Part shown: positions 547 through 61,908 of the stretch, one piece after another
Layout of the letters: every line of letters starts with the position of its first letter
Numbering within the stretch: the first letter of the stretch is position 1
DNA from: Rhodoferax sp.
GTDB lineage: Bacteria > Pseudomonadota > Gammaproteobacteria > Burkholderiales > Burkholderiaceae_C
DNA length: 64,000 nt
Assembly (NCBI GenBank): GCA_031428695.1
Contig: JANOYE010000093.1
Coordinates: 2,700 to 66,699, forward strand
Direction: 5' to 3'
Notes under the pieces: model-generated
Databases searched by the model: none
The model's input: only the letters and a program-made list of their open reading frames with translations
Told to the model about the DNA's origin: nothing
Position numbers and translations under genes: made by a program

Positions 547-1529
547 ACCCCCTGCGAAGCCTGCTGCAAATGACGCTGGACATGTTTGAGCCAGCGCCGG
601 AGAAAAGGCCGCCCAAAGCTGATTTGATTGGAAAACGTAAAGAAAATCGTCCTCCAAGTCACGTATTAATTGCACAATACGCTCCTGAAAATATAGCAAC
701 TGACAGCGGCTTTCGCGCCGAACCGTTGCAAGACGTGATGGCGCCAGCCAACTTTCGCCATCCCCGCGCCAACCGCGAATCCCGCTTGCGCGACGCGCTG
801 GTCGCTTACGAATTCAAGCGGGCCCGTCGCCGCACCATCGGGTTTCAGGTGGGTGCGGACGGCCTGGTTGTCAGCGCCCCCAACTGGGTTCCTCTCTATG
901 AGGTGGAGGCCGCGCTGCAGGAGAAAGCCGCTTGGGTGCTGAAAAAGCTCGACGAAACCCGCGTGCGCAAGGCGCAGCTCGACGCCAACCGCATTGAATG
1001 GCGCGATGGCACCAATTTGCCGTTTTTGGGAGAGCAAGTCATCGTGGTGCTCGACCCACGCCATGCGTTTGGCGATGTGGGCGCTGTGCTGCACACCGAT
1101 GAAGCTGCGCCCAACCTCACGCTGGCCGGTGTGCCACGCCTGACGCTGCATGTGGCTCTGCCGCACAACGCCTCGCCCACGCAGATTCGCGACGCCGTGC
1201 AGGCCTGGTTGATGCGCCAGGCAAAACGCGTGTTCATTGAGCGGCTCAACCACTACGGGCCGCTCCTAGGCGTGCAATGGAAAAAACTCTCCTTGAGCAG
1301 CGCTGGCACGCGATGGGGCAGCGCCAGCGCCGATGGTTCCATCCGCCTGAACTGGCGGCTCATTCATTTCAACCAGTCGGTGATCGACTACGTGGTGGCC
1401 CATGAGCTGAGCCATCTGCGCGTGATGGACCACAGCCCGCGATTTTGGGACACGGTGGCAACGGTCGTACCCGACTACGCCCACCTGCGCCACCAGCTCA
1501 AAGACGATTCATTGCCGCGTTGGAACTGA
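543..1529 (+). CDS. YgjP-like DUF45/M48-fold zinc metallohydrolase; start uncertain (ATG 543 or ATG 738)
   Basis: C-terminal HELSHLRVMDHSPRFW (HExxH) is typical of YgjP/DUF45. ATG 543 overlaps the plsC stop as ATGA. The first ~65 codons are AT-rich and carry repeat copy E, so ATG 738 (MAPANFRH) is an alternative start. Confidence 0.75.
   Translation: MNPLRSLLQMTLDMFEPAPEKRPPKADLIGKRKENRPPSHVLIAQYAPENIATDSGFRAEPLQDVMAPANFRHPRANRESRLRDALVAYEFKRARRRTIGFQVGADGLVVSAPNWVPLYEVEAALQEKAAWVLKKLDETRVRKAQLDANRIEWRDGTNLPFLGEQVIVVLDPRHAFGDVGAVLHTDEAAPNLTLAGVPRLTLHVALPHNASPTQIRDAVQAWLMRQAKRVFIERLNHYGPLLGVQWKKLSLSSAGTRWGSASADGSIRLNWRLIHFNQSVIDYVVAHELSHLRVMDHSPRFWDTVATVVPDYAHLRHQLKDDSLPRWN
655..699 (+). repeat. 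45-bp AT-rich composite motif, copy E
   Basis: CAAGTCACGT-N16-GCTCCTGAAAATA-TAGCAA. It aligns column for column with the eight other copies (see findings). Confidence 0.7.
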
Positions 1530-1530
1530 C

Positions 1531-2628
1531 ATGTCGCGGCGGCGCTACCTGTGGAACTTCCTTGTCGGCCTGGCGCTTGCCGCACATGCACCCTTGGCGT
1601 TTGCTCAGGAAAAGCAGTGGGAGCGCGCGTTTGATGTTATTTACGAAACGCAGTGGCAACAGTCTGGTATTTTGGATGGCGTAAAGCGTTGGCCAGCGCG
1701 TCAGGACAAGGTTTTGACGTTCACCATCAACGTCGGCGCGAGTTCGTCGAATGCTGATCGCGCGCGCAGCGCCTTGGCGCGTGTGCTGGCGGTTCTGGAC
1801 ATGACGACACGTGAATTGGTGGCGGGTGATGAAACCGCGCAAATCCAGTTCGACATCCGCCGTTTTGCGCCAGAAGAGCTGCTCCAGCATGCCTGTTACG
1901 CGCAATCGACCTCAAGCGGCGGTCAGCTCAGCCGAGTCAAGCTGGTGCTCAATGAGCCGTCGACCTATTGGTGCGTGCTGCACGAGTTGATGCATGCCAT
2001 GGGGCTTCCGGGCCATCCGCAGGGCGATACTGTGTTGAGCTACTTTGAGGGCAACCGGCTGTCATTGAAGCCAATTGACGAATTTCTGCTCAGGGCCTGG
2101 TACACCGACGGCATCAAGCCGGGCATGTCGCCGCTGGTCGCCGTGCGGATCATCAACCGCATGTGGATCGAGCAATCTCTGGCGCCGCAAGAGCAGGCCA
2201 GGGCGGCGTTGGTGGAGCGGCAATGGTACGAACGGACAATTGCTGGTTTGGAGGCCTTTGCCAATGGCGCGGGTGAGCCGCCATTGATTTTGTTTCGTTC
2301 CGGAAAGCTCAATGCGACGGGCATGAAAATGGGCCAGATGAACGTGCAGTCGATACTCGGATTTTCGTACTTTAACGGCCTGTCCGTGGCGCAAGACCGC
2401 ATCAAAGGCGCAGGTTATATGCTGAAGGCGGCCCAAAATGGCAACCGCAATGCGGTTGCCAATCTGTTGCGGGTGTTGGCCATCGCGGATTTACCAGTCG
2501 AGGTGTCAGCGACCCTGTGTAAGTGGTTCGCAACGGCAGCTGTCGAAGAAACCGGCCTGACCAAACCTGCGCAGGATCAGGCGTTGGCCTCAGCAGCATG
2601 CAAGCCAGGCACCGACTCAAACCGGTAG
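1531..2628 (+). CDS. Secreted putative zinc metalloprotease with C-terminal Sel1-like repeats
   Basis: N-terminal signal peptide (LALAAHAPLAFAQE). Zincin/metzincin-like HELMHAMGLPGH. C-terminal Sel1-like segment GFSYFNGLSVAQDRIKGAGYMLKAAQNGNRNAVANL. Confidence 0.6.
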   Translation: MSRRRYLWNFLVGLALAAHAPLAFAQEKQWERAFDVIYETQWQQSGILDGVKRWPARQDKVLTFTINVGASSSNADRARSALARVLAVLDMTTRELVAGDETAQIQFDIRRFAPEELLQHACYAQSTSSGGQLSRVKLVLNEPSTYWCVLHELMHAMGLPGHPQGDTVLSYFEGNRLSLKPIDEFLLRAWYTDGIKPGMSPLVAVRIINRMWIEQSLAPQEQARAALVERQWYERTIAGLEAFANGAGEPPLILFRSGKLNATGMKMGQMNVQSILGFSYFNGLSVAQDRIKGAGYMLKAAQNGNRNAVANLLRVLAIADLPVEVSATLCKWFATAAVEETGLTKPAQDQALASAACKPGTDSNR

Positions 2629-4270: not shown

Positions 4271-5526
4271 ACCTGCCCGGCCTTGACTTCCAGCTCGGCG
4301 ACGACATCAACGCGCTGCGCGACGCTGTGCGCGAATTCGCGCAGATTGAGATCGCACCGCGCGCCGCCGACATCGACAAAAACGACCAGTTCCCTATGGA
4401 CGTGTGGCGCAAGCTCGGGGATTTGGGCGTGCTCGGCATTACGGTGGCCGAAGAGTACGGCGGTGCGGGCATGGGGTACCTTGCTCACATGATCGCCATG
4501 GAGGAAATCTCCCGCGCGTCCGCCTCAGTGGGCCTGTCTTACGGCGCCCACAGCAACCTGTGTGTGAACCAGATCAACCGCAATGGCACCGAGGCGCAGA
4601 GGCGCAAATACCTGCCCAAACTGATCAGCGGAGAGCATGTCGGCGCATTGGCCATGAGCGAGCCGGGCGCGGGCAGCGATGTCATCAGCATGAAACTCAA
4701 AGCGGAAGACAAAGGCGGCTACTTCCTGCTCAATGGCAGCAAGATGTGGATCACCAACGGCCCGGACGCCGACACTTTGGTCGTCTACGCCAAGAGCGAA
4801 CCTGAGGATGGCCCCCACGCTTCGCGCTTCGCGTCTTCGCTGCCCCCCGAGGGGGCTGTTTCGGCTCGGGGCGGCCCAGCGCCGAAACGCGGCGCCAATC
4901 ACATTACCGCCTTCCTGATCGAAAAGGGGATGAAGGGTTTCAGCGTCGCGCAAAAGCTGGACAAACTCGGCATGCGCGGCAGCCACACTGGCGAGCTGGT
5001 GTTCAACAACGTCGAGGTGCCGGCGCAAAATGTGTTGGGCGGCCTCAACAATGGCGCCAAGGTGCTGATGAGCGGGCTCGACTACGAACGCGCCGTGCTC
5101 ACCGGTGGGCCGCTGGGGATCATGCAGTCGGTGATGGACAACATCATCCCGTACATCCATGACCGCAAACAGTTTGGCCAAAGCATCGGCGAGTTTCAGC
5201 TGATCCAGGGCAAAGTGGCTGACATGTACACCGTGCTGCAGGCCGGGCGCTCATTCGCTTATACGGTGGCGAAAAACCTCGACATGCTGGGCGCTGAACA
5301 TGTGCGCCGCGTGCGCAAGGACTGCGCTTCCGTCATTCTCTGGACAGCCGAAAAAGCCACCTGGATGGCCGGCGAAGGCGTGCAGATTTTCGGCGGCAAC
5401 GGCTACATCAACGACTACCCGCTGGGCCGCCTGTGGCGCGACGCCAAGTTGTATGAGATTGGCGCTGGCACCAGTGAAATTCGCCGCATGTTGATCGGGC
5501 GGGAATTATTTGCTGAAACGATGTAG
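4267..5526 (+). CDS. liuA: Isovaleryl-CoA dehydrogenase, carrying a ~27-aa in-frame insertion
   Basis: Full-length acyl-CoA dehydrogenase similarity with IVD-type blocks ([44 protein letters not shown]). liu gene context. Confidence 0.9.
4813..4893 (+). repeat. GC-rich hairpin-containing (REP-like) 81-bp in-frame insertion inside liuA
   Basis: Tandem CGCTTCG heptamers. Hairpin GCCCCC-cga-GGGGGC (4842-4856). Hairpin GTTTCGGC-N15-GCCGAAAC (4858-4888). Encodes [27 protein letters not shown], which is absent from the canonical IVD YAK...GITAF loop. Confidence 0.5.
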
Positions 5527-5538
5527 ATGCGGCCAGCC

Positions 5539-6162: not shown

Positions 6163-6818
6163 CCAACTCGATCCAAAACCTCTTTGACCACAACCGTGCC
6201 TGGGCCAGCGCCATAGCGCGCGAGCGCCCCGGCTTTTTCACCAACCTGAAGAACCAGCAGTCGCCCAAATACATGTGGATTGGCTGCTCAGACAGCCGCG
6301 TGCCGGCCAACCAGATTACTGGGCTTGAGCCGGGCGAAGTGTTCGTGCACCGCAACGTGGCGAACATCGTGGTGCATTCGGATTTGAACGCGCTCTCAAC
6401 GATTCAATTTGCGGTGGAGCGCCTCAAAGTGCAGCATGTGATGGTGGTGGGCCACTTCGGCTGTTCGGGTGTGCAGGCGGCCCTTGAAGGCGCGCGCATT
6501 GGGCTGGCTGACAACTGGCTGCGCCACATCCAAGACGTGCGGGATCGCCATCGTGGGTTGATCGAATCGTTGCCTGAAACCGTGCGGCACGATGCGCTGG
6601 TGAAACTCAATGTGATCGAGCAGGTGGTGCATGTGGCGCAAAGCACGGTGTTGCAAGACGCTTGGAGCCGAGGGCAAGTGGTGACGCTGCACGGCTGGGT
6701 GTACGGTGTGCATGACGGTTTGCTGCAAGACCTGGAAATGTCAGTTGCTGGGCTGGATTCCCTGGATGGCCAATATCTCAAAGCTGTTGAGGCTGTAAGT
6801 CTCGTAAAACCTGCGTAA
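6159..6818 (+). CDS. can: Beta-class carbonic anhydrase
   Basis: WIGCSDSRVPANQITGLEPGEVFVHRNVANIV and VVGHFGCSGV zinc-ligand blocks, collinear with E. coli Can. Confidence 0.9.
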   Translation: MTNSIQNLFDHNRAWASAIARERPGFFTNLKNQQSPKYMWIGCSDSRVPANQITGLEPGEVFVHRNVANIVVHSDLNALSTIQFAVERLKVQHVMVVGHFGCSGVQAALEGARIGLADNWLRHIQDVRDRHRGLIESLPETVRHDALVKLNVIEQVVHVAQSTVLQDAWSRGQVVTLHGWVYGVHDGLLQDLEMSVAGLDSLDGQYLKAVEAVSLVKPA

Positions 6819-6840
6819 TCAGCTTCAATAAACATAGCAA
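6796..6840 (+). repeat. 45-bp AT-rich composite motif, copy I (spans the can stop codon)
   Basis: TAAGTCTCGT-N16-GCTTCAATAAACA-TAGCAA. The first 14 nt after the initial base are identical to copy H. Confidence 0.7.
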
Positions 6841-6852
6841 CTTCCAGTCACC

Positions 6853-10504: not shown

Positions 10505-10566
10505 ATGCTGAAAATAATCGTGTATTATGAATATTTGTGTTTATTATGATTATTTTACGTTTTGAT

Positions 10567-10611
10567 AATCATCTAAATATATAGCAAATATTTAAATAAA
10601 TACGTGACTTA
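10567..10611 (-). repeat. 45-bp AT-rich composite motif, copy A (partial: lacks the distal TAGC)
   Basis: Minus strand reads TAAGTCACGT-N16-GCTATATATTTAG-ATGATT. It lies in the AT-rich island 10505-10684. Confidence 0.7.
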
Positions 10612-10684
10612 AACCAGCTAATAGTGTATCTCTATATTTGAAAAATATTTATTTCATGCTTAAGCGCAAGCTTCGATCCATCCT

Positions 10685-14347: not shown

Positions 14348-15970
14348 ATGGCGATTCTGGAAACCAAACTCAATGCGCGGTCTGCCGACTTTCTGGCCAA
14401 TGCTGCTGCCATGCGCGCCGTGGTGGAAGACCTGAAAACAAAGATTGCGCAAACCGCTTTGGGCGGCGGCGACGCGGCCCGCGCCAAACACACGGCACGC
14501 GGCAAGTTGTTGCCACGTGAGCGGGTGCAAATGCTGCTCGATCCCGGCACGCCGTTTCTGGAGTTTTCGCCCCTGGCGGCGATGAACATGTACCCCGACC
14601 GTGACGGCACTGACAGCGCCCCGTGCGCGGGTGTGATCACCGGCCTTGGCCGCGTCAGCGGTGTCGATTGCCTGATTGTCTGCAACGACGCCACGGTGAA
14701 AGGCGGCACCTACTACCCCATGACGGTGAAGAAACATTTGCGGGCGCAAGAGATCGCGCAGCAGAATAATTTGCCGTGCATCTATCTGGTTGATTCCGGT
14801 GGCGCGAATCTGCCGAACCAGGACGATGTCTTTCCTGACCGAGACCACTTTGGCCGTATCTTCTACAACCAGGCGAACCTCAGCGCGCAGGGCATCGGCC
14901 AGATCGCCGTGGTGATGGGCTCCTGCACAGCAGGCGGCGCTTATGTGCCTGCGATGAGCGACGAAACCATCATCGTCAAAAACCAGGGCACGATTTTTCT
15001 GGGCGGCCCGCCCTTGGTGAAGGCGGCGATTGGCGAGATTGTGTCGGCGGAAGATTTGGGTGGCGGCGACGTGCACACGCGGTTGTCTGGCGTGGCAGAC
15101 CACTTGGCGCAGAACGACCCGCATGCATTGGCGTTGGCCCGGGCGGCTGTCAAGAATTTGAACAGAAACAAGGTTTCAAGTCTCGTAAAACAAGCGTCAA
15201 TCGCTCCTAAATATGTAGCGAAAGAAATTTACGGCGTCATCCCTGTTGACACCCGAAAACCGTACGACGTGCGCGAAATCATTGCTCGCATTGTTGATGG
15301 CTCCGAGTTTGATGAATTCAAAGCGCGTTTCGGCAGCACGCTGATCTGTGGCTTTGCCCGCATTGAAGGCATGCCCATTGGCATCGTTGCCAACAACGGC
15401 ATTTTGTTCAGCGAATCGGCGCAGAAAGGCGCGCACTTCATCGAGCTGTGTTGCCAGCGCAAGGTGCCGCTGTTGTTCCTGCAAAACATCACCGGTTTCA
15501 TGGTCGGGCGCAAATACGAGAACGAAGGCATTGCCCGCCATGGCGCGAAGATGGTCACCGCTGTGGCCACCGCGCAAGTGCCCAAATTCACCATCATCAT
15601 TGGCGGCAGTTACGGGGCGGGCAACTACGGCATGTGCGGCCGCGCCTATTCGCCGCGCTTTTTGTGGATGTGGCCCAACGCGCGCATCTGCGTGATGGGC
15701 GGCGAGCAGGCCGCCAGCGTGTTGGCCACCGTGCGGCGCGACGGCATCGAGGCCAAAGGCGGAACCTGGAGTACCGATGAGGAGTTGAAATTCAAGCAGC
15801 CTATGCTCGACCAGTTCGCCCTCCAGTCGCATCCTTATTACGCCAGCGCCCGACTGTGGGACGATGGCGTGATCGACCCGGCGGACACGCGGCGCGTGTT
15901 GGGGCTGGCCTTGTCAGCATCGCTGAACGCCCCGATTCCAGATACTAAGTTCGGTGTGTTCCGGATGTGA
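14348..15970 (+). CDS. liuB: Methylcrotonyl-CoA carboxylase, carboxyltransferase (beta) subunit
   Basis: Full-length carboxyltransferase similarity ([41 protein letters not shown]-terminus). liu context. Confidence 0.9.
15177..15221 (+). repeat. 45-bp AT-rich composite motif, copy H (inside the liuB coding sequence)
   Basis: CAAGTCTCGT-N16-GCTCCTAAATATG-TAGCGA. It encodes [16 protein letters not shown] in a variable linker of liuB. Confidence 0.7.
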
Positions 15971-23883: not shown

Positions 23884-24039
23884 GGCCCGCCGGAGCGCCG
23901 CCGCTTGCCGCAGGAGCGGGTTCAATTTTAAATTAATTTGTATGTTAATAAATTGATGAAATTGAGTAAAAATTAACATGTATGTTAATTGTTGACGCAA
24001 TTTTCGTCAACGTTCAAAAATATGAACATTTTCGCCATC

Positions 24040-24084
24040 CAAGTCACGTGAAATGGCCATTTGTTGCTATATATAATATAGCGT
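24040..24084 (+). repeat. 45-bp AT-rich composite motif, copy D
   Basis: CAAGTCACGT-N16-GCTATATATAATA-TAGCGT in the AT-rich island 23920-24110. Confidence 0.7.
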
Positions 24085-24110
24085 CCATCCGGTTGCAAAA
24101 TAAGTGGATC

Positions 24111-35292: not shown

Positions 35293-35416
35293 ATTCCTGG
35301 CGGGTTTTTAGGCCTGCAAGCAAATTTGACGCGGAGTAAAGTCAAGATATTCAGAGCGTCTAAAATTGCGTTTAGTATAAATTGTTGTTTATTTTGTGAC
35401 TCTTTAAAAGTCTAAT

Positions 35417-35461
35417 TTAATTTAAATAATGTAGCAAATACTTGAAAAAATACGTGACTTA
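35417..35461 (-). repeat. 45-bp AT-rich composite motif, copy B (partial: lacks the distal TAGC)
   Basis: Minus strand reads TAAGTCACGT-N16-GCTACATTATTTA-AATTAA. It lies in the AT-rich island 35293-35551. Confidence 0.7.
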
Positions 35462-35551
35462 CCTTGCTTTCAATTAGCTAAAAAATTTAGGAGAATAGTT
35501 ATTTTTAATCCACCTGACTCTGCGCCAGACTCTCATTGGAAACATGGTGGA

Positions 35552-35997: not shown

Positions 35998-36849
35998 TCA
36001 GCCGGGTGAAATTTGGCGCTTGGCTGCCCAACCCTGGCGCTGCAACACGGCCCGCGCCAGCTCGGCAAACCCGGCGCCGCGCGCGCCTTGAGTAACGTAA
36101 CGCGGCTTGTGGTTGAGCTGCGGCAAAAAGCGTTCGATATTGGCCACACCCACGCTGTAAGTGAAGTGATGGAACATGGCCTGGTCATTGCCTGAATCAC
36201 CGACGAACACCCAGGCGTCCAGTTCGCGCGCCAGATCAATGCCCCACAACTCGCGCGCAATCCAGCAGGCGCCGCGCCACTTGTCAAACACGCCGAAGCA
36301 GCCGTGGATGTGGATGCTGCTGACCGTGGTGTGCATGCCCTCGTCTTGCAGGATGGCCAACACCTTCGCCACAGTTTCGGGCGGCAATCTCACATGTTCG
36401 TTGTAGTCAAAGGCCAGGTCGGTTTCGCGCCCCGCGCTGTCGGCTGAAAGCCCGGCTTCGGGAACTTCTAGCAACACCCGGGCCGCCACCTGCTGCATTC
36501 GCCGGAAATTTTGACTGCGATTGGCGGCGTCTTGTTGATATAATTTTAATAGCAAACTATCGCCATTTTGCGTGACTTGGATGCCGTTTTTATTCTTGAT
36601 CAATGCGACGGAGCCGTTTTCGGCCACTATCGTACCCAATATGGGGTTTATTTGAATGAGCGCTTCACACCAGCCGACCGGGCGCCCCGTGATGGCGATG
36701 ACGCGCAGGCCCGCTGCCTGCAGACTGTCCAGCGCCTCAAGCGCGTCTGGCGTAATCTCGCCCTCGGTCGTCAGGGTGTCGTCGATGTCGGTGAACACAC
36801 CCGTGATGTTGCGGCGTTGCGCCAGCGGCCAATCTGCCAGGGGCTTCAT
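35998..36849 (-). CDS. HAD-IIB family hydrolase (sugar-phosphate phosphatase-like)
   Basis: Motif I VFTDIDDTLT, ITGRP, and C-terminal VGDSGNDQAMF. The start is moved to ATG 36849 (MKPLADW). It lies 13 nt downstream of prfC. Confidence 0.8.
   Translation of the reverse strand: MKPLADWPLAQRRNITGVFTDIDDTLTTEGEITPDALEALDSLQAAGLRVIAITGRPVGWCEALIQINPILGTIVAENGSVALIKNKNGIQVTQNGDSLLLKLYQQDAANRSQNFRRMQQVAARVLLEVPEAGLSADSAGRETDLAFDYNEHVRLPPETVAKVLAILQDEGMHTTVSSIHIHGCFGVFDKWRGACWIARELWGIDLARELDAWVFVGDSGNDQAMFHHFTYSVGVANIERFLPQLNHKPRYVTQGARGAGFAELARAVLQRQGWAAKRQISPG
36535..36579 (-). repeat. 45-bp AT-rich composite motif, copy F (inside the HAD-IIB coding sequence, sense orientation)
   Basis: Minus strand reads CAAGTCACGC-N16-GCTATTAAAATTA-TATCAA. 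It encodes QVTQNGDSLLLKLYQ. Confidence 0.7.
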
Positions 36850-40844: not shown

Positions 40845-41777
40845 ATGCGGGCTGACCAGCTCCTGCTGCAACGCGGCATCGCAAGCTCCCGCTCGCAGGC
40901 GCAACGCTTGATTGCATCGGGCGTGCGCTGGCGTGCCGATATTGAAGTGCCAGTTGGCGCGTTGGCGGCGGCCTGGAAACACATCGGAAAAAACAGCGAT
41001 GAGTTGCCGGTTGAGGCCGTCATCGAGCTGCTTGATGCGTCCGAAGCGAAATACGTCTCGCGTGGCGGCTTGAAGCTTGAAGGCGCGTTGAAGGCCACCG
41101 GCGTCACTGTCGAAGGCAAAACCTGCCTTGACGTGGGCCAATCGACCGGCGGCTTCACCGATTGCCTGTTGCAACACGGCGCCAAACGGGTGATGGGTGT
41201 GGACGTTGGCAGTGGCCAATTGCACCCGTCAATGCGCCAACACCCTCAGGTGGTAGCGCTGGAGCATGTCAACGCGCGGGAGTTGTCCGCTACTGAATTA
41301 ATAGCTGCATACGAAAATAATTCGAGACTTGGCGGCCAGTTTGATGAAGAAGACGATCAAATCGGCGGCGCGCTGCTTGCATCAGCGCCTGGCTCGGCTC
41401 CTGCTGGGGGCGCGGCGTCAAACTTAGACGCAGGCTTCGACGCCAGTTTCGATCTCATCGTCGGCGACTTGTCTTTCATCTCCCAAACGCTGGTGCTGCC
41501 CGCTCTGGCGCCGCTGCTCAAGCCCGGCGCAGTTCTGCTGATGTTGGTCAAACCGCAGTTTGAGCTGCAACCCGGCCAGGTCGGCAAAGGCGGCATTGTC
41601 AAAGACGCGGCCCTGTACAAAATCGTCGAAAAACGAATTCGCGACAGTTGTGCCGAATTGGGCCTGGCCGTCATCCGCTGGGTGGACAGCCCCATCACCG
41701 GCGGTGACGGCAACCGTGAATTTTTTGTCCACGCGCAACGGCTTATTGACGTTCCCGCCCCTAACAAAGGTGCTTAA
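40845..41777 (+). CDS. tlyA: TlyA-family rRNA 2'-O-methyltransferase with a ~45-aa internal insertion
   Basis: N-terminal S4 domain (MRADQLLLQRGIASSRSQAQRLI), SAM motif DVGQSTGGFTDCLL, and DLSFISQ ... LVKPQFE. Low-complexity insertion between NAR and FDLIVGD. Confidence 0.85.
   Translation: MRADQLLLQRGIASSRSQAQRLIASGVRWRADIEVPVGALAAAWKHIGKNSDELPVEAVIELLDASEAKYVSRGGLKLEGALKATGVTVEGKTCLDVGQSTGGFTDCLLQHGAKRVMGVDVGSGQLHPSMRQHPQVVALEHVNARELSATELIAAYENNSRLGGQFDEEDDQIGGALLASAPGSAPAGGAASNLDAGFDASFDLIVGDLSFISQTLVLPALAPLLKPGAVLLMLVKPQFELQPGQVGKGGIVKDAALYKIVEKRIRDSCAELGLAVIRWVDSPITGGDGNREFFVHAQRLIDVPAPNKGA
41287..41331 (-). repeat. 45-bp AT-rich composite motif, copy G (inside the tlyA insertion, antisense)
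   Basis: Minus strand reads CAAGTCTCGA-N16-GCTATTAATTCAG-TAGCGG. Confidence 0.6.
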
Positions 41778-47709: not shown

Positions 47710-47777
47710 CTTCTAACTTTACTGCCATCGTTATTTCTAACTTTAGCGGATTGAGAAGCCCTGAAATCTCGGGGCGG

Positions 47778-48290: not shown

Positions 48291-48512
48291 AGGAACGAAT
48301 TCTAGAGATGCAAAACACAATGCAAGCAGCGCAGGGTTTCATCTCCGCATAAAAAATGCCTAGGGCAATGTAATATTTCTCGCTTGCGTCCTCAATTGAA
48401 GAGGCGCGCCAATTTGCTATCAGTTTTACGCCCAAATGCGTTATATTCAATGGGAATCACCTGATTGCCGGGCGCTGTCAATCCTGAAACCCCGAGAAGA
48501 ATGGAAGCTGTC

Positions 48513-49145: not shown

Positions 49146-49236
49146 TACAGAGGTTTGGTGAATCTCATTCGGCGGTCTCGCGGGCGTGTCCCGCGACGCG
49201 AAGATGACGCCATTTCTTGAAGAATGATGCCTGTAA

Positions 49237-50811: not shown

Positions 50812-50816
50812 GCTTC

Positions 50817-53377: not shown

Positions 53378-53380
53378 CCC

Positions 53381-54469: not shown

Positions 54470-54489
54470 GCAAATTCCCCATAAAAACA

Positions 54490-55662: not shown

Positions 55663-55678
55663 TGGGTTGGAGTGATTC

Positions 55679-56551
55679 GTGTCGAAGCCAATTTCCCCAC
55701 AGCCCGTTAATGCGTTGACGATTGACGTTGAAGACTACTTTCAAGTCTCCGCGTTCGCGCCGCACATTGAGCGGTCTGAATGGAACACGTCAGAATGCCG
55801 GGTTGTCCGCAACGTTGAGCGCATACTGGAGCTGCTGGCGGTTCGTCAAACCAAGGCGACTTTTTTTACCCTGGGCTGGATCGCTGAAAGGTACCCGGCA
55901 CTGGTGCGCCAAATTGTGGCCCAAGGCCATGAACTGGCCAGCCACGGTTATGGCCACCAGAGGGCGAGTGATTTGTCGGAAGCGGCTTTTTTTGCCGATA
56001 TTTCGCGCGCCAAATTCATTCTGGAAGATTTAGGGGGCATGGAAATCAAAGGTTACCGCGCGCCAAGTTTTTCAATAGGCGCCGGAAATCTGTGGGCGTT
56101 TGACAGCCTGGCACGTGCCGGTTACAGATACAGCTCCAGCGTTTACCCGATCAAACACGACCATTACGGTATGCCGGATTCGCCGCGTTTTGCCTACAAG
56201 GTTCACCCTGACCTTCTGGAGGTTCCGGTGACCACGTTGCGGGTGCTGAACCGCAACTTGCCGTCAAGCGGTGGTGGCTATTTCAGGTTGTTTCCGTATG
56301 CTTTGTCCAAATGGATGCTCAAGCGTGTGAACAGCCAAGACGCTCAGGCTGGCATCTTCTATTTTCACCCCTGGGAAATTGACGTTCAGCAGCCGCGTGT
56401 GGCTGGGATTGGCAGCAAGACGCGGTTTCGCCACTACGTCAACATTGCCCGCATGGAAGGTCGCCTGGGTAAATTGCTGGGCGATTTCGAATGGGGCCGC
56501 ATGGACGACATCTTTTTGGGCAAGACGCATCGAGAGGCTGCGCTTGCCTGA
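55679..56551 (+). CDS. Polysaccharide deacetylase, PEP-CTERM locus subfamily
   Basis: ALTIDVEDYFQVSAF, FFTLGWIAERYP and HELASHGYGH NodB-type motifs. GTG start. Confidence 0.85.
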   Translation: MSKPISPQPVNALTIDVEDYFQVSAFAPHIERSEWNTSECRVVRNVERILELLAVRQTKATFFTLGWIAERYPALVRQIVAQGHELASHGYGHQRASDLSEAAFFADISRAKFILEDLGGMEIKGYRAPSFSIGAGNLWAFDSLARAGYRYSSSVYPIKHDHYGMPDSPRFAYKVHPDLLEVPVTTLRVLNRNLPSSGGGYFRLFPYALSKWMLKRVNSQDAQAGIFYFHPWEIDVQQPRVAGIGSKTRFRHYVNIARMEGRLGKLLGDFEWGRMDDIFLGKTHREAALA

Positions 56552-57596
56552 CTCAGGTTCGTTGACGATCACCTGTTTGTCCATTGAAGACGCTGCAGCG
56601 TCAAAGCGATGGGACGCCTTCGTACTTGGCTGCCCCCAGGCCTCATTCTTCCACCGCGCCGGCTGGCAAAAGATTGTGCGTGAAGTCTTCAAGCACGATA
56701 CCTATTTTTTGTACGCTGAACTGAACGGAGCCATCCAAGGTGTGTTGCCTTTGGCACATGTCAACAGCTGGTTATTCGGAAACTCGCTCGTGGCTCTGCC
56801 GTTTGCCGTGTACGGCGGGGTTGCGGCCAGCGGCGAGGAGGCGGCGCTGGCGCTGGAGTCCGAAGCCCAAACCATTGCCAAGCGTTTGGGCGTGGCTCAC
56901 CTGGAGTTTCGCAACACTGCGGCCCGCCATGCCGACTGGCCCACGCAGGATCTTTACGTCACTTTTCGCAAAGAAATGCTCTCGCAAGACGACGCCAACA
57001 TGCTGGCCATACCGCGCAAACAACGCGCCATGGTTCGCAAGGGCATCAAGAACGGGTTGACCAGCGAAATCGACACAAGCGTAGATCGCTTCTTCAGCCT
57101 TTATGCCGACAACGTTCACCGGCACGGCACCCCGGCCATGCCCAAGCGGTACTTCAAGGCACTGCAGGCCGAATTTGGTGCCGATTGCGAAATACTCACG
57201 GTGGTCGGCCCCGACGGGCGTTTGCTGAGTTCGGTCCTGAGTTTCTATTTTCGCGACGAAGTCTTGCCTTACTACGCGGGAGATGATGAGTCTGCCCGCG
57301 ACTTAGCTGCCAATGATTTCAAATACTGGGAGCTGATGCGCCGCGCTTGCGCCAAGGGATTGAAAGTATTCGACTACGGGCGAAGCAAACAGGGCACGGG
57401 CTCGTTCTCCTTCAAGAAGAATTGGGGCTTCGAGCCCCAGCCGTTGCACTACGAATATTGCCTGTACAAGCGTGACGCCATACCGCAGAACAATCCGGCC
57501 AACGCGAAGTACCAGTTGCTGATCAAAACTTGGCGCCGCCTGCCCATCGGCTTGGCCAACTGGCTGGGTCCATTCATCGTGCGCAACCTGGGGTGA
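56544..57596 (+). CDS. FemAB-family protein, PEP-CTERM system-associated (start uncertain: TTG 56544 or 56562)
   Basis: WDAFV ... FFHRAGW ... N-terminus and a GNAT-like duplicated fold. There is no ATG after the upstream stop, so a TTG start is inferred. Confidence 0.75.
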   Translation: MPDSGSLTITCLSIEDAAASKRWDAFVLGCPQASFFHRAGWQKIVREVFKHDTYFLYAELNGAIQGVLPLAHVNSWLFGNSLVALPFAVYGGVAASGEEAALALESEAQTIAKRLGVAHLEFRNTAARHADWPTQDLYVTFRKEMLSQDDANMLAIPRKQRAMVRKGIKNGLTSEIDTSVDRFFSLYADNVHRHGTPAMPKRYFKALQAEFGADCEILTVVGPDGRLLSSVLSFYFRDEVLPYYAGDDESARDLAANDFKYWELMRRACAKGLKVFDYGRSKQGTGSFSFKKNWGFEPQPLHYEYCLYKRDAIPQNNPANAKYQLLIKTWRRLPIGLANWLGPFIVRNLG

Positions 57597-57604
57597 GCAG
57601 GGTC

Positions 57605-58858
57605 ATGCGCAATATTCTGCTGCTGGTGCATCGGTTGCCCTATCCTCCCAACAAAGGGGACAAGGTGCGTTCTTTCCATTTGCTCAAGCATTTGGCGCAG
57701 AACAACCGCGTCTTTTTGGGAACCTTCATTGACGATCCTGCCGATGTGGTTCATCTGGGCACCGTGCGTGGGTATTGTGCAGACGTTCACGCGGCCACAA
57801 TTTCACCGATCCGGCAGAAAATTGTCAGCTTGCTGGCACTGCTGACGGGGCAGGCGATGTCGCTGCGGTATTACCATGACGACGGCCTGCAGGCCTGGGC
57901 CAAACGGGTCGTGACTGAACACCAGATTGACGCCGCAGTCGTTTTCTCATCCGCCATGGGCCAGTACGCACAGCAAAATACTCGAACCGAACTGTTGGTG
58001 GATTTCGTCGATGTTGACTCTGCCAAATGGACGCAATATGCGGCAAACCATCCTTGGCCACTGTCATGGCTCTACAAGCGGGAAGGACAAAAACTGTTGG
58101 CCTACGAACGGGAACTGGCTGCGCGCTCCAGACGCTCGTTTTTCGTCACCGAGAATGAAACCCAATTGTTTCGCAAGCATGCGCCGGAATGTGCCGATCT
58201 CGTGGAGGCCATGAGCAACGGCGTAGACTCCGACTTTTTTTCGCCAAATCCTGCGTTTCAGAACCCGTTTGGAGAGGGTGCTTTGAGGAAAGATGCTCTC
58301 CTTTCAGTTGTGTTTACCGGTGCCATGGACTATTGGCCCAATGTCGACGCGGCGACCTGGTTTGTCAGTGACATATTGCCCCTCTTGCGCAAAAAGTTTC
58401 CGCAGGCGTGTTTTTACATCGTCGGGCGCAGCCCCACGCCAGGGGTGCTTGCTTTGGCGTCCGAATGTGTGGTTGTGACCGGTACCGTTGACGATGTACG
58501 CCCCTACCTCCAACACGCCAGCGTCGTGGTGGCGCCATTGCGCTTGGCCCGAGGCATTCAGAACAAGATTTTGGAGGCCATGGCGATGGCGCGGCCAGTC
58601 GTGGCCTCGTTGTCCTGCGTTGAGGCGATTCATGCGGTGCAAGGCAGCGAGCTGGCAGCAGCCGAGTCGGCCGCTGAGTTTGTGACACAAATCGAGGCGA
58701 TTTTCCATTCACCCCAGCGGTCAGCCCAGTTGGGGCTCGCAGCTCGGCAACGGGTCGTGAAAGACTACAGTTGGGAAGCTCATATGGGCAAGATTGACAA
58801 GTACCTTGCGCCTCACATTTTGCCTCGCCCTAAAGTGCCCGTAGAGGTGCTTGGATGA
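57605..58858 (+). CDS. Glycosyltransferase, exosortase-A-system-associated (GT4-like)
   Basis: MRNILLLVHRLPYPPNKGDKVRSFHLL N-terminus and the C-terminal GT-B block RGIQNKILEAMAM. Position matches the locus order. Confidence 0.8.
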   Translation: MRNILLLVHRLPYPPNKGDKVRSFHLLKHLAQNNRVFLGTFIDDPADVVHLGTVRGYCADVHAATISPIRQKIVSLLALLTGQAMSLRYYHDDGLQAWAKRVVTEHQIDAAVVFSSAMGQYAQQNTRTELLVDFVDVDSAKWTQYAANHPWPLSWLYKREGQKLLAYERELAARSRRSFFVTENETQLFRKHAPECADLVEAMSNGVDSDFFSPNPAFQNPFGEGALRKDALLSVVFTGAMDYWPNVDAATWFVSDILPLLRKKFPQACFYIVGRSPTPGVLALASECVVVTGTVDDVRPYLQHASVVVAPLRLARGIQNKILEAMAMARPVVASLSCVEAIHAVQGSELAAAESAAEFVTQIEAIFHSPQRSAQLGLAARQRVVKDYSWEAHMGKIDKYLAPHILPRPKVPVEVLG

Positions 58859-60423
58859 CTGCTGTGTTGATGACACCGCGCAGGCAACCCGTGCCATGGA
58901 AATTGGCCTTGACGTTGTCAGTGCTGCTGCTGGCCCTGACGGTTGTCGCGTATTGGGACACAGCCTCGGCAATTGTCCTGATCTGGATGCGGTCCGAAAC
59001 TTTTACCCACGGATTTTTGGTGCCACCCATCACCGCGTGGCTGATCTGGCGTCAACGGGAAAGCCTGAGTGCACTCAGCCCCGAGCCAAACGTTTGGGCT
59101 TTGCTGGCGATGGCAGGGGCGGCGCTGGCGTGGCTTCTGGGTGATTTGGCGGCGGTCAACGCCTTGGCGCAGCTGTCGTTTGTTGCCATGCTGGTTTTGC
59201 TGGTGCCAGCGATTCTCGGCCAGGTCGTGACGAGGGCGATTATTTTCCCGCTGGGTTTTCTATTTTTCGCCGTTCCAATCGGCGAATTTGCGATGCCTCA
59301 ACTGATGGAGTGGACCGCCGATTTCACGGTGCTAGCGCTTCGCCTGAGCGGGATTCCGGTTTACCGCGAAGGGCTGCAGTTTGTCATTCCTTCCGGGAAC
59401 TGGTCGGTGGTGGAGGCGTGCAGTGGCGTGCGTTACTTGATCGCTTCGGTCACCGTGGGGACCCTTTTTGCTTACCTGAACTACCAGTCAACCAAGCGAC
59501 GGGTCTTGTTTGTCATCGTGTCATTTCTTGTGCCGGTTCTGGCAAATTGGCTGCGCGCCTACATCATCGTCATGCTGGGGCATTTCTCGGGAAACAAGCT
59601 GGCAACTGGTGTGGATCACCTGGTGTACGGCTGGTTGTTTTTTGGCATTGTCATCATGCTGATGTTCATGATTGGCGCGCGGTGGGCCGAGCCGGCACAG
59701 GTTCGGCCAGCCGTTGTGGGGTCGCATTTCGGCTCCCTGGATGCCAGCTCGACCGCCAGGCTGTGGGCAAACGCCTTGTGTTTTGCGGCGCTGGTCGGTT
59801 TGCCGCACCTGGCTCTGTGGAAAATGGAAAGCGGGCAAGCTCGCACACCCAGCCCGCTGATTGAGCCTGGGGTTTTGGGTGCGGACTGGCAACGCGTTGC
59901 TAACGTCGATCTGAATTTCAAGCCGGCCTTTCAAAACCCTTCGTCTGAAATTAACACCACCTTCTCAAGTCAAGGCAAGCAGGTTGGCCTCTATCTGGCC
60001 CATTACCACAATCAGGACTACAACCGTAAGCTGGTGAGTTCGGCTAACAGCCTGATTGGCGGCAAAGAGCCGCAATGGGCGGTGGCGCGCAGCGCCAAAC
60101 AGGCGGTAGACCTGGGGGCAACACAAGAGGCATGGCGGACGACGGAGCTGCGCGCGCTGGCATCGGCGGGGCAGTCGGCCGACATCCGCCTTGAAGTCTG
60201 GCAGATTTATTGGATAAACGGCACTCTGACAGCCAGCGACTACCTCGCCAAAGTTTATAGTGCGGTCTATCGATTGTTGGGTCGCGGGGATGATTCCGCC
60301 GTGATTGTGGTCTACACCGTCAAAGGCCAACCGGGCGCAGCGCAAGCCACTCTGCAAAACTTCCTGGCAACAAATTATCAGCAGATCAATGCAATTTTGT
60401 CAGTGCCACAGCAGCAAAAGTGA
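58855..60423 (+). CDS. xrtA: Exosortase A fused to an EpsI-family domain
   Basis: Exosortase catalytic motifs EACSGVRY (Cys), NWLRAY (Arg) and MLGH (His) in a polytopic N-terminal half. The C-terminal ~220 aa is a soluble EpsI-like half. ATGA overlap with the upstream GT. Confidence 0.85.
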   Translation: MTAVLMTPRRQPVPWKLALTLSVLLLALTVVAYWDTASAIVLIWMRSETFTHGFLVPPITAWLIWRQRESLSALSPEPNVWALLAMAGAALAWLLGDLAAVNALAQLSFVAMLVLLVPAILGQVVTRAIIFPLGFLFFAVPIGEFAMPQLMEWTADFTVLALRLSGIPVYREGLQFVIPSGNWSVVEACSGVRYLIASVTVGTLFAYLNYQSTKRRVLFVIVSFLVPVLANWLRAYIIVMLGHFSGNKLATGVDHLVYGWLFFGIVIMLMFMIGARWAEPAQVRPAVVGSHFGSLDASSTARLWANALCFAALVGLPHLALWKMESGQARTPSPLIEPGVLGADWQRVANVDLNFKPAFQNPSSEINTTFSSQGKQVGLYLAHYHNQDYNRKLVSSANSLIGGKEPQWAVARSAKQAVDLGATQEAWRTTELRALASAGQSADIRLEVWQIYWINGTLTASDYLAKVYSAVYRLLGRGDDSAVIVVYTVKGQPGAAQATLQNFLATNYQQINAILSVPQQQK

Positions 60424-60475
60424 CGGCTCGGCGCAGTGAATGAACAACTAACATGAACGCGATGGAGAAATCGAA

Positions 60476-61756
60476 ATGACCGTGGTTGCAGTGATTGGAT
60501 TGGGTTACGTGGGCCTGCCGCTCGTCGTGGAGTTTGGCAAACACATGCGCACGATTGGTTTCGACATCGCCGTGAACAAAGTGGAGTCGTGCCTCAAGGG
60601 CGTTGACCCGTCCCGAGAATTGTCGGACGACGAAATGCGGGCGTCGCCCCATGCAGCCTACACCGCAGACCCCAAAATGCTGGCCGAGGCCGACATCATC
60701 ATCGTGGCCGTGCCGACGCCAGTTGACGCCGCACACATCCCTGATTTCCGCCCCCTGATCGGCTCCAGCACCAGCGTCGGGCGCCACATGAAAAAAGGCG
60801 TGATCGTGGTGTACGAATCCACGGTCTACCCTGGCGCGACCGAAGAAGTTTGCATTCCCGTGTTGGAGCGCGAATCGGGCCTGAAGTGGAAACAAGACTT
60901 TTTCGTCGGTTATTCGCCCGAACGCATCAACCCTGGCGACAAAGAACACACGCTGACCAAGATTCTCAAAATCGTCTCGGGCGACACGCCGCAAACGCTG
61001 GACAAAGTCGCCAAGCTGTACGAAACGATTATCGTGCCCGGCGTGCACCGCGCCTCCAGCATCAAAGCCGCCGAAGCCGCCAAGGTGATCGAAAACACCC
61101 AGCGGGATTTGAACATCTCGTTGATGAACGAGTTGTCCATCATTTTTGACAAAATGGGCATCGACACCACCGAGGTGCTCGAAGCCGCAGGCACCAAGTG
61201 GAACTTCCTGAAGTTCAAGCCGGGCCTGGTTGGCGGCCACTGCATCGGTGTTGATCCGTATTACCTGACGCACAAAGCCGAGATGCTGGGTTACAACCCA
61301 CAGGTCATTTTGGCGGGGCGGCGCATCAACGACGGCATGGGCAAGTTCATCGCCGAGCAGACCATCAAACACATGATCGCGGCGGGCAGTTACATCAAGG
61401 GCGCCAAAGTTAACGTGCTGGGTTTGACGTTCAAAGAGAATTGCGGCGATCTGCGCAACTCAAAGGTGATTGACATCATCAACGAGCTCAAGACCTATGG
61501 CGTCGAAGTTTTTGTGACCGACCCGCAGGCCGAGTCCGAAGAAGCGGTGCATGAGTACGGCGTGCCGCTCTTGCCGTGGGACGACTTGCCCCGCGCTGAC
61601 GCGATTGTGGCGGCGGTGGCTCACAAGGAGTTTGCCGCGCTTTCCATGGAAGATTTCAGCAAAAAGCTGGTCAAAGGCGGCGCCTTTATCGACGTGAAGG
61701 CTGCGTTTGACCGCAAGGCCATTACGGACGCAGGCTACAAACTCTGGCGGCTGTGA
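60476..61756 (+). CDS. Nucleotide-sugar 6-dehydrogenase (TviB/WbpO/WecC-like)
   Basis: VAVIGLGYVGLPL NAD fold and the catalytic block GGHCIGVDPYY. Confidence 0.9.
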   Translation: MTVVAVIGLGYVGLPLVVEFGKHMRTIGFDIAVNKVESCLKGVDPSRELSDDEMRASPHAAYTADPKMLAEADIIIVAVPTPVDAAHIPDFRPLIGSSTSVGRHMKKGVIVVYESTVYPGATEEVCIPVLERESGLKWKQDFFVGYSPERINPGDKEHTLTKILKIVSGDTPQTLDKVAKLYETIIVPGVHRASSIKAAEAAKVIENTQRDLNISLMNELSIIFDKMGIDTTEVLEAAGTKWNFLKFKPGLVGGHCIGVDPYYLTHKAEMLGYNPQVILAGRRINDGMGKFIAEQTIKHMIAAGSYIKGAKVNVLGLTFKENCGDLRNSKVIDIINELKTYGVEVFVTDPQAESEEAVHEYGVPLLPWDDLPRADAIVAAVAHKEFAALSMEDFSKKLVKGGAFIDVKAAFDRKAITDAGYKLWRL

Positions 61757-61863
61757 CGAGCGGTGTTGCGATGGCGCCTGACTGATTTTAAAGTATTAAC
61801 TTCCATGTTAACAAATTGAATCAAACTGCCCCTTTTTGGATTATTTAAAGAAAATTATGCCTC

Positions 61864-61908
61864 TAAGTCACGAATTATATAGATTTGTTGCTATTAATAA
61901 TATAGCAA
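61864..61908 (+). repeat. 45-bp AT-rich composite motif, copy C
   Basis: TAAGTCACGA-N16-GCTATTAATAATA-TAGCAA in the AT-rich island 61781-61930. Confidence 0.7.

Follow-up and report, generated by a model that had tools for sequence, protein, structure and literature searches.

REP/BIME elements lie in 3' intergenic positions, are enriched between convergent genes and are rare between divergent genes. Elements of the REP/BIME/REPIN type bind proteins such as gyrase and IHF, and their lineage-specific variants co-diverge with a single-copy RAYT. The ERIC/IRU elements of Enterobacteria measure ~127 bp and occur in tens to hundreds of copies in transcribed intergenic regions; they are conserved at orthologous sites and expanded in some lineages, and their function is unknown. 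Rickettsia palindromic elements (RPE) form in-frame copies in coding genes, where they occupy structurally tolerant positions and are evolutionarily persistent. The USS of Haemophilus consists of a GC-containing core followed by AT-rich tracts. Uptake sequences were found at weakly conserved residues, and genes that have no homologues lack them (PMC2817400); these sequences also form lineage dialects (PMC3630211).

The motif analyzed here is a real, previously undescribed DNA signal that is dispersed through a stretch of 64,000 nucleotides (the window), which had been correctly assigned to the Comamonadaceae and belongs to the genus Rhodoferax. The pattern AAGTCNCG-N17-GCT has 10 exact matches in the window compared to 0.14 expected, and a count of 10 was reached in 0/100 dinucleotide-preserving shuffles. 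Nine of the ten matches are the sites of a preliminary description, which had their coordinates and strands right, while the tenth, at 33752-33779 on the minus strand, is GC-rich and probably a chance match within a uvrA-like gene. A profile scan had also been proposed, and a detection profile trained solely on copies from other genomes and then run on the window recovered 9/9 copies with E values from 3e-13 to 7e-4, the weaker ones being B, A, I and H. The nine copies, together with the upstream palindromes described further below, are as follows:

634..701 (+), copy E: box1 AAGTCACG at 656-663, then GCT...TAGC; in the N-terminal tail of a YgjP-like gene, or else preceding an alternative start; external-profile E = 6e-8
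6775..6842 (+), copy I: box1 AAGTCTCG at 6797-6804; overlaps the last codons of a carbonic anhydrase gene and stops 11 nt short of the aceK start; E = 2e-4
10566..10632 (-), copy A: box1 at 10603-10610, left half-site TTTGCTAT kept, right half-site missing; in the AT-rich spacer of a thiolase and an acyl-CoA dehydrogenase gene; E = 9e-5
15156..15223 (+), copy H: box1 AAGTCTCG at 15178-15185; sense, inside liuB (methylcrotonyl-CoA carboxylase beta); E = 7e-4
23931..23993, strand (.), upstream palindromes of unit D: two inverted repeats of the TTAA(C/T)-N6-(A/G)TTAA type, one of them TTAACATGTATGTTAA at 23973-23988
24019..24086 (+), copy D: box1 AAGTCACG at 24041-24048, then palindrome GCTATATATAATATAGC; intergenic, following a DsbA-like gene and preceding a small ORF and a DUF4212/SSF operon; E = 5e-12
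35416..35482 (-), copy B: box1 at 35453-35460, right half-site missing; in the AT-rich spacer of the uvrA-like gene and a cupin gene; E = 7e-5
36534..36600 (-), copy F: box1 AAGTCACG at 36571-36578; sense, inside a HAD hydrolase gene; E = 1.5e-10
36634..36647 (-), remnant of the type-2 upstream palindrome of copy F: ACCCCATATTGGGT, at the canonical distance from box1
41286..41352 (-), copy G: box1 AAGTCTCG at 41323-41330; antisense, in the lineage-specific linker of tlyA; E = 8e-7
61796..61811, strand (.), type-1 upstream palindrome of unit C: TTAACTTCCATGTTAA
61843..61910 (+), copy C: best match in the window; box1 AAGTCACG at 61865-61872, then TTGTTGCTAT-TAATAAT-ATAGCAATCAA; intergenic, ~42 nt ahead of a GT4 glycosyltransferase gene; E = 3e-13

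Copies A, B and C are intergenic. The three coding phases proposed for the motif were inexact, because E, H and I have a common phase, the phase of F differs from it and G lies antisense to its gene. The ORF containing copy D is probably spurious. TAGC is present in six copies, in agreement with the earlier reading, and the TATC of copy F avoids the stop codon that an in-frame TAG would create. A low-GC polysaccharide cluster of 20 kb (about 42-61.8 kb) contains no copy of the motif.

The motif has a fixed register, in which box1 (AAGTCWCG, 8 bp) is followed by 15 bp and a 21-bp palindrome, TTGCTAT-N7-ATAGCAA, where N7 is A/T. The 45-bp motif of the preliminary description is present, but the conserved unit is longer, spanning roughly -22 to +45 as counted from box1, and comprises ~25 constrained positions. 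Outside the positions fixed by the search pattern, frequencies reach 0.98 for A28, 0.95 for A42, 0.94 for T19 and 0.89 for T29, so that conservation is position-specific on a saturated AT-only background. The proposed conservation at the DNA level is supported. The right half-site ATAGCA is conserved as strongly as the left one, pointing to dyad recognition; a clear compensatory change at palindrome positions 29 and 37 was not found. Identity between paralogues is 57% in the core and 26% in the flanks, and even the highest core identity (~81%) goes along with unrelated flanks; near-identical paralogues were absent among the copies compared. In three Rhodoferax MAGs, the motif is part of an AT-rich unit of ~150 bp with a second, terminator-like palindrome centred at ~-61 relative to box1, which in the window is carried by C, D and F and is lacking in most copies. 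The centres of the two palindromes are ~94 bp apart, corresponding to roughly 9 helical turns, with AT tracts between them. The upstream palindromes belong to two specific sequence types at a fixed distance (49 near modules, 1 far) and have extended outer arms that are variable yet complementary and often followed by T-runs. The unit is composite, with two left-end subfamilies and one common right end, and in canonical intergenic copies the upstream hairpin probably doubles as transcription terminator.

The signal occurs only in one small group of freshwater Rhodoferax. The three MAGs contributed 69 of the 72 database loci, and in 1.03 Mb from close relatives (54-91% prfC identity) there were 0 matches and nothing better than E = 1.8 with the external profile. 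Density is about 1 per 7 kb in the sub-clade of the window, compared to roughly 1 per 75 kb for the three MAGs, the genome-wide density being an extrapolation from ~200 kb of the high-density sub-clade. The previous remark that the motif was not recognisable as any named REP, MITE or transcription factor motif was borne out by an Rfam search, which gave no match, and by literature searches, in which the motif was not found as a named family. Intergenic copies make up 72/83 (87%). Copies are enriched between convergent genes and depleted between divergent genes: of 49 copies, 18 are convergent (10 such genes confirmed by Pfam), 15 and 12 are tandem in the two orientations and 4 are divergent. 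Flanking genes are functionally heterogeneous without a common function, and coding copies are found both in sense and antisense. Placement follows tolerance, not gene control.

Copies G, F, H, A, D and I as well as a copy between metF and EamA recur at orthologous positions in other genomes, and the ones within tlyA, liuB and the HAD hydrolase gene are kept across species in variable protein segments. At orthologous sites, identity is 76% at high-information positions compared to 57% elsewhere (p = 2e-7). Copy H coincides with the most variable segment of LiuB and causes neither an indel nor a length change relative to distant homologues; its position carries AGGTCTCG in L160 and GGCCGTCA in L159. 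The motif-covered part of G aligns codon for codon with motif-free relatives, and G is kept in L154 and L155 (AGGTCTCG) and in L157 (GGCCGTCG). Copy A has orthologs in L160 (AGGTCTCA) and L159 (GGCCGTCG), D in L160 (AGGTCTCG) and F in L157 (GGCCGTCA), whereas the ortholog of I is present in L160 and absent from L159. In an identical register, box1 forms dialects: it reads AAGTCWCG in 9/9 window copies and GGCCGTCR in 5/5 copies of another genome (L157+L159), coding ones included (Fisher p = 5e-4, with about 0.04 expected by chance according to a hand estimate), while AGGTCTC(G/A) is found in 3-4/6 copies of a third (L155+L160), where box1 is mostly AGGTCTCG. This concerted change could result from gene conversion among copies.

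Compared with the described systems, the motif resembles DUS of Neisseriaceae and USS of Pasteurellaceae in being lineage-specific, over-represented and present in both orientations, with intergenic copies tied to terminators, coding copies at poorly conserved residues that arose by substitution (PMC2817400), concerted lineage dialects (PMC3630211), absence from a probably foreign gene cluster, and a GC-containing core followed by AT-rich tracts. However, DUS and USS have 9-12 bp (~30 bp with flanks), whereas the Rhodoferax motif covers about 45-75 bp and includes a 21-bp palindrome as well as a second box, and the ~25 constrained positions count against an uptake-like signal. So does the density, which is 10 to 100 times lower than the ~1 per kb of DUS/USS, and so does the core, because box1 on its own shows no over-representation (8 occurrences in the window, 6 of them within copies). 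The additional palindrome at fixed distance is a further difference. With REP/BIME elements and REPIN-RAYT systems, the motif shares tens to hundreds of extragenic 3'-end copies, scarcity between divergent genes and hairpin-forming palindromes, but those elements are GC-rich hairpins with a GTAG head, while the Rhodoferax motif is AT-rich and asymmetric, has conserved intragenic copies and originated in situ by substitution; no RAYT was seen in the sequence covered. ERIC/IRU are similar in size, copy number, location, orthologous conservation and lineage expansion, yet ERIC is one long imperfect palindrome without sequence similarity to the Rhodoferax unit, which is asymmetric with two separate short palindromes and a box. 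RPE likewise have long-lived in-gene copies at tolerant positions, but they are insertions that add length, unlike copy H and the codon-aligned motif part of G, and show no sequence similarity to the motif.

Several explanations can account for parts of these observations. A rather unlikely one is a REP/BIME-like site with local function, at which a lineage-specific architectural protein would occupy the two palindromes and box1, with gyrase, an IHF-like factor or a roadblock factor as partners, and each copy would be selected for terminating or insulating converging transcription or for relieving supercoiling. The 3' intergenic, convergent-rich and divergent-poor placement, the helical spacing of the palindromes with AT tracts between them, the complementary variable arms with frequent T-runs and the orthologous conservation all agree with such a role. 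Moreover, upstream palindromes of two specific types at a fixed distance and almost only beside modules suggest that a larger nucleoprotein complex assembles and acts locally at gene ends, something an uptake signal would not require. On the other hand, the conserved mid-gene copies in liuB, tlyA and the HAD hydrolase gene would be odd for a terminator or insulator that could have used intergenic DNA within a few hundred bp; the majority of window copies have no upstream palindrome, and only a few percent of gene ends carry the unit (estimated from an inferred ~50 units per MAG). The hairpin beside units in transcribed 3' regions, often followed by T-runs, and the small-RNA-like unit size would also suit an RNA element, either a small RNA present in many copies or a signal for processing or stability in the 3' UTR, which would be read off a single strand and terminate at the upstream hairpin. 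We consider this very unlikely, given the lack of an Rfam match and of covariation in the second palindrome, the random orientation relative to flanking genes and the presence of both sense and antisense coding copies.

The promoter/operator cassette that had been suggested earlier was not supported and appears improbable. In this model, which involves an alternative sigma factor or an activator, box1 would be the -35-like or activator site and TGCTAT(A/T)(A/T)(A/T) the extended -10 element, with transcription starting at ATAGCA; owing to the palindrome, the cassette could be bidirectional, driving genes, internal transcripts and antisense RNAs. The motif indeed resembles extended -10 or sigma-S-type promoters in its similarity to TGnTATAAT with C at -13, which TTGCTAT provides on both strands, in the centre-to-centre distance of ~23 bp between box1 and GCTAT, equal to that of -35 and -10, and in the A/T-rich, UP-like region upstream. 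E, I, D and C lie 11-45 nt upstream of co-oriented starts, and box1 dialects could track sigma factor region 4. However, the downstream gene is co-oriented in just 25/61 related copies, indicating that these are not ordinary promoters; the divergent spacers where promoters live are depleted (4/49), 18/49 copies are in convergent spacers, and there is no gene that the conserved metF-EamA copy could drive. T is found at position -7 in just 45% of copies, a sigma-70 scan calls no -35/-10 pair at the module, and the flanking genes are unrelated. The sole viral match, in a divergent spacer ~120 bp upstream of and aimed at a terS-terL-portal operon, would suit a promoter, but phages whose TerL shows 70-84% identity do not carry the motif. 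The miniature mobile element that had been suggested earlier was not supported either. A repeat of this kind (MITE, REPIN or RPE-like), non-autonomous and spreading by transposition or short-patch conversion from master copies, sometimes in frame, and homogenised within a lineage, is similarly doubtful. It would account for the composite unit with palindromes almost only beside modules, for concerted box1 change as the expected product of conversion, for the modal GATAGTTTGCTAT string in coding copies of L157 and for the synteny breaks or extra gene at the metF-EamA unit; the tlyA linker (G) and the HAD loop (F) are absent from outgroups and could be old in-frame insertions of about unit size. 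Nevertheless, no terminal inverted repeats bracket the unit and no transposase adjoins paired copies, information peaks at specific positions and does not decay evenly, and G is codon-aligned in its motif part. The diverged paralogues, the lack of terminal inverted repeats and the indel-free liuB copy show that this is not an active MITE.

Among the three options considered originally, a protein-binding site fits best. We tentatively propose that the motif may be the recognition site of a lineage-specific, co-evolving trans-acting factor, most likely a protein, and accumulates in situ like DNA uptake sequences. The 21-bp palindrome looks like a dimer site. Copies arise and are kept by base substitution without transposition, at places where an AT-rich stretch is tolerated, namely 3' intergenic spacers, the tails of genes and variable loops of proteins, and then stay at orthologous positions for long periods. 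A shift in reader specificity would change box1 in concert across all copies of a genome and thereby create dialects, to which gene conversion may contribute. Such behaviour is that of a genomic watermark which spreads through a bias in transmission or selection, comparable to DNA uptake signal sequences, and not that of a signal controlling its neighbouring gene. We infer that in these Rhodoferax, bias in DNA uptake, transfer or conversion, and not local function, would drive the accumulation of the motif.

We found 10 exact matches to AAGTCNCG-N17-GCT in the 64 kb of the window, compared with 0.14 expected from dinucleotide-preserving shuffles, and 10 matches were reached in none of 100 such shuffles. 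Nine of them are the sites A to I of the preliminary description, all correctly placed and, as described, in both orientations (five on the plus and four on the minus strand). The tenth match (33752-33779, minus strand) lies in GC-rich sequence inside a uvrA-like gene, has no other feature of the motif and is probably a chance occurrence. A profile HMM trained only on copies from other genomes recovered every one of these nine sites, C being the best match (E = 3e-13) and H the weakest (E = 7e-4). The observation of a dispersed motif is confirmed, but the length of 45 bp originally assigned to it was too short: the conserved unit spans about -22 to +45 around box1, the 8-bp left box.

The window is a segment of a betaproteobacterial chromosome, and one 12-kb metagenome scaffold is identical to its sequence. 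It contains a leucine/fatty-acid catabolism cluster (liuR, ivd, can, aceK, thiolase, acyl-CoA dehydrogenases, liuB and others), genes for a UvrA-like protein, a cupin and a HAD hydrolase, prfC, a SAH riboswitch with ahcY followed by tlyA and metF, and a lower-GC polysaccharide/exosortase cluster. A ParD/ParE toxin-antitoxin pair lies between prfC and the riboswitch. The isovaleryl-CoA dehydrogenase gene ivd carries at about 4807-4887 an 81-bp palindromic in-frame insert (27 aa, 72% GC) that is missing from the orthologs in the related contigs L159 and L160; it is GC-rich, REP-like and bears no relation to the AT-rich motif. Searching the whole window against Rfam 15 at gathering thresholds yielded only the riboswitch, and no tRNA genes were found.

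Structured RNA in the window
39169-39274: SAH riboswitch (Rfam RF01057, 45 bits), upstream of ahcY

In a single scan of 185,579 species-representative genomes with a stricter pattern, which matches only five of the nine window copies, at least 72 loci were found; among the matches listed, 69 came from three Rhodoferax sp. metagenome-assembled genomes (MAGs), one from a Rhodoferax isolate and two from unrelated taxa. The match in Rhodoferax sp. U11-2br (L045) was judged to be due to chance because its spacer is GC-rich, and those in the unrelated Roseburia and Pontibacter were treated in the same way. Neither a motif copy nor a match to a dialect-agnostic palindrome pattern was present in 80 metagenomic loci with prfC at 54-91% identity (1.03 Mb), and on 1.03 Mb of related genomes the best E-value of the profile HMM was 1.8. 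Since these prfC-bearing relatives lack copies, the motif is confined to a narrow Rhodoferax sub-clade. Strong over-representation, lineage restriction and occurrence in both orientations are properties that it shares with DNA uptake sequences (DUS/USS). At about 11269-11297 of L076, a relative without the motif system, CAAGTC immediately abuts GCTATCAGAGTAATAGCAAC (profile E = 1.8), a string that may have degenerated from the motif, reflect its ancestral state or be due to chance.

In the MAGs, the bipartite motif forms the right-hand portion of an AT-rich unit of ~150 bp; between about -100 and +50 the GC content is 0.27-0.4, compared with about 0.62 in the background. Across copies, information peaks at specific positions and shows no even decay; the constrained positions read T.GGC..T.AAGTCACG.A.....T...T...TTGCTAT-N7(A/T only)-ATAGCA. 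The right end of the unit is a 21-bp dyad, TTGCTAT-N7-ATAGCAA, of which copies A and B lack the right half-site. The two half-sites are conserved independently of each other, without clear covariation between positions 29 and 37 of the dyad, a pattern expected of a site for a dimeric protein; judged by its sequence, the dyad looks like such a site, not like a selected hairpin, and the lack of clear covariation led us to reject a hairpin or RNA role for this palindrome. An RNA element in general is also highly improbable, as there was no Rfam match, and unit C produced only noise (E above 1) even at permissive Rfam 15 thresholds.

Another palindrome has its centre at about -61. It is either of the type TTAACA-N4-TGTTAA or of the type TACCCA-N3-TGGGTA, with arms of 6-23 bp whose outer parts vary among copies while remaining complementary. 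Because T-runs often follow, it is terminator-like. Both types are nearly confined to the vicinity of the module consisting of box1 and the dyad part (49 near vs 1 far); in the window, the palindrome is present at C and D and left as a remnant at F. The sole 'solitary' type-1 palindrome among the MAG loci (L017, 1188-1320) is followed by a copy with the box1 AGGTCTCA, indicating that the AGGTCTC variant also occurs in a MAG otherwise using AAGTCACG.

Where copies lie within genes, they occupy variable segments. The segment of LiuB that contains H aligns gap-free to the P. aeruginosa enzyme and is the most variable stretch of a protein that is otherwise about 90% conserved, and H is of substitutional origin. 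Copy G lies antisense at the edge of a linker in TlyA, where the codons of L074, L076 and L078, relatives without the motif system, align one to one without forming the motif. This linker (window 41292-41445; compared in L074, L076, L078 and L077) is located within the FtsJ methyltransferase domain, is of low complexity and variable length (0 to about 50 aa) in the clade, and is absent from PDB homologues and more distant relatives. Copy F is found in a variable loop of the HAD hydrolase, its right half overlapping the conserved peptide LLKLYQQ, and it has TATC, as previously noted, where TAG would be an in-frame stop. Coding copies born by substitution at poorly conserved residues are also characteristic of DUS/USS.

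Contigs from graded relatives, obtained via TlyA and LiuB homologues, showed that copies persist for long at orthologous positions. G is present in every TlyA relative contig (L154, L155/L156, L157/L158), F was also detected in L157, H-like sequence in L159 and L160, A in both of these contigs, and I and D in L160. L154, L155/L156 and the MAG locus L026 have a canonical unit in the spacer where metF and EamA converge, and in L157/L158 this unit is inverted and devoid of the palindrome. In orthologous pairs, high-information positions were 76% identical vs 57% elsewhere in and around the motif (p = 2e-7). Directly downstream of copy I, the window aceK (6853-8748) has three in-frame TAA stops (7315-7317, 7978-7980 and 7990-7992), at least two of which replace Tyr or Lys codons, whereas L159 and L160 have an intact ortholog (634 and 623 aa, respectively); the window gene is probably a recent pseudogene.

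Box1 differs from genome to genome.

Box1 sequences by genome
Window: AAGTC(A/T)CG, 9/9 copies
L157+L159: GGCCGTC(A/G), 5/5 copies (orthologues of A, H, F, G and the metF-EamA site)
L155+L160: AGGTCTC(G/A), 3-4/6 copies
L154: AAGTCACG and AGGTCTCG, one each

For the L157+L159 dialect, the chance expectation is about 0.04 (hand estimate) and the difference from the window is significant (Fisher p = 5e-4). The register of box1 and N17 before GCT is constant across dialects, and the GCTAT...ATAGC dyad is invariant in all dialect genomes. Because H switches dialect without an indel in liuB, the comparison indicates that the change of box1 is substitutional and concerted. Its simplest cause would be a trans-acting reader that varies in specificity from lineage to lineage, with gene conversion among copies as the alternative. 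Lineage dialects kept within a genome are likewise known from DUS/USS.

Density also varies. Nine copies in 64 kb amount to about 1 per 7 kb in the window; L155+L160 has about 6 in 36 kb and L157+L159 has 5 in 43 kb, whereas about 400 kb of MAG loci contained only about 5 besides the 69 seeds, roughly 1 per 75 kb. From these counts, the motif appears to have undergone a roughly tenfold expansion in the sub-clade of the window, in part within coding sequence. No copy lies in the 20-kb low-GC (0.52-0.58) exosortase/polysaccharide cluster at about 42000-61800 of the window, nor in the same cluster in L154 and L155; outside it, the window has about one copy per 5 kb.

Among 2.9 million viral contigs, one contained a good copy (E = 5e-8).

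Viral copy
L161 (IMGVR_UViG_3300049825_000167), 4329-4395: motif copy with box1 AAGTCTCG

It is situated in a divergent spacer about 120 bp upstream of, and pointing at, a terS-terL-P22-like-portal operon. In 34 related TerL loci, some at 70-84% identity, the motif is missing and the segment is not shared; therefore the viral copy does not represent a pac site or late promoter conserved among P22-like phages. The contig may stem from a phage whose host bears the motif, or from one that borrows a host signal.

The preliminary description had offered a promoter/operator cassette, a mobile or converting cassette and a chromosome-organising protein site as possible explanations. Outside genes, where 72 of 83 copies are located, the motif favours 3' spacers.

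Orientation of the upstream/downstream genes relative to the motif (copies with two called neighbours only, total 49)
same/opposite (convergent genes): 18 copies
same/same: 15 copies
opposite/opposite: 12 copies
opposite/same (divergent genes): 4 copies

Ten convergent partners were verified as real genes by Pfam, among them citrate synthase, CoaD, a class-I glutamine amidotransferase (GATase) and YhbY. The downstream gene shares the motif's orientation at just 25 of 61 copies, and no common function was found among the genes adjoining copies; this placement rules out an ordinary promoter or regulon, and a promoter for an alternative sigma factor or activator is improbable for the same reason. 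Consistently, scanning for near-consensus -35 and -10 hexamers 16-18 bp apart revealed no sigma-70 site at the box1/TGCTAT register of module C and only an offset pair at D (GTGAAA / TATAAT, 18-nt spacer), and the T frequency at -7 is only 0.45. A terminator consensus scan around C and D called nothing at this register. The consensus sequences for sigma-54, ECF, sigma-28, IHF, CRP, Lrp, LexA, KorB, parS, dif and the LysR-box did not fit by eye; there was no Rfam match, and searching the literature by sequence and topic yielded no description of the motif, which the preliminary description had not recognised as any named REP, MITE or TF motif either. The observed placement matches a gene-end function or plain tolerance of 3' spacers. 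A REP/BIME-like binding site at gene ends would account for the extragenic 3' position and the avoidance of divergent spacers, but the unit is AT-rich and asymmetric instead of a GC-rich palindrome with a conserved head as in REP/BIME/REPIN. This reading ranks second and is somewhat unlikely.

A mobile or gene-converting repeat has little probability. No terminal inverted repeats were detected around units C and D, only internal palindromes; within-genome paralogues are diverged (mean identity 57% in the core and 26% in the flanks, about 81% in the core of the best non-orthologous pair), and the near-identical full-length paralogues typical of MITEs were not found. Copies of a MITE would add length; H resides in liuB without an indel and the G motif aligns gap-free to relatives, but the TlyA linker and the HAD loop that hold G and F are missing from outgroups. 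The motif is probably not an active mobile element, and the miniature element initially considered is not supported. A composite transposon was rejected as well, the genes between the paired copies of the MAG locus L013 being ordinary (SDR and MFS transporter). Synteny between L026 and the window breaks at the metF-EamA unit, so that units may be hot spots of rearrangement or insertion. At this spot, where L154, L155 and L026 have the canonical unit, the window contains, within 42616-43613, an extra NTP_transf_8 gene and only a 38-bp AT-rich palindromic remnant (43576-43613).

Among known systems, DNA uptake sequences come closest in behaviour: they sit at poorly conserved residues and are missing from genes without homologues (PMC2817400), show lineage dialects (PMC3630211) and, like the motif, are associated with terminators. 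However, DUS/USS have a short core of 9-12 bp that occurs about once per kb, whereas the motif exceeds that length several-fold, is 10 to 100 times sparser and shows no excess of its core alone. Its accompanying palindromes at fixed distance also count against membership and suggest a nucleoprotein complex at gene ends. We tentatively favour a watermark or recognition site with drive-like accumulation, and infer a co-evolving protein reader and accumulation by bias instead of a local role at each site. That the function is specifically uptake or transfer is doubtful; our literature search found nothing on competence in the group. In this speculative version, the motif would be a new kind of uptake/transfer signal, the first beyond Neisseriaceae and Pasteurellaceae, in free-living freshwater Comamonadaceae. 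Its bipartite build would be unusually long and would be read by a dimeric protein plus a fast-evolving specificity module, changes of which would create dialects and, through them, barriers to recombination between sister lineages.

The motif, a candidate recognition site, is noteworthy for its dialects and its conserved in-gene copies. The organisms that bear it are uncultured. If our reading is correct, abundant freshwater bacteria known only from metagenomes would bear a genome-wide, protein-read watermark that shifts its dialect between sister lineages and is strong enough to alter the amino-acid sequences of conserved enzymes. It would provide a sequence-only marker for lineage boundaries and for resident vs foreign DNA, and a tractable case of co-evolution of DNA-binding specificity with hundreds of sites. 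Should the motif instead be an architectural or termination mark of gene ends, it would be a REP/BIME-like system of a new kind, whose binding code is defined and can be tested. If the watermark is real and the bias acts on uptake or transfer, self-preferring DNA exchange would extend far beyond the two pathogen families in which it is known.
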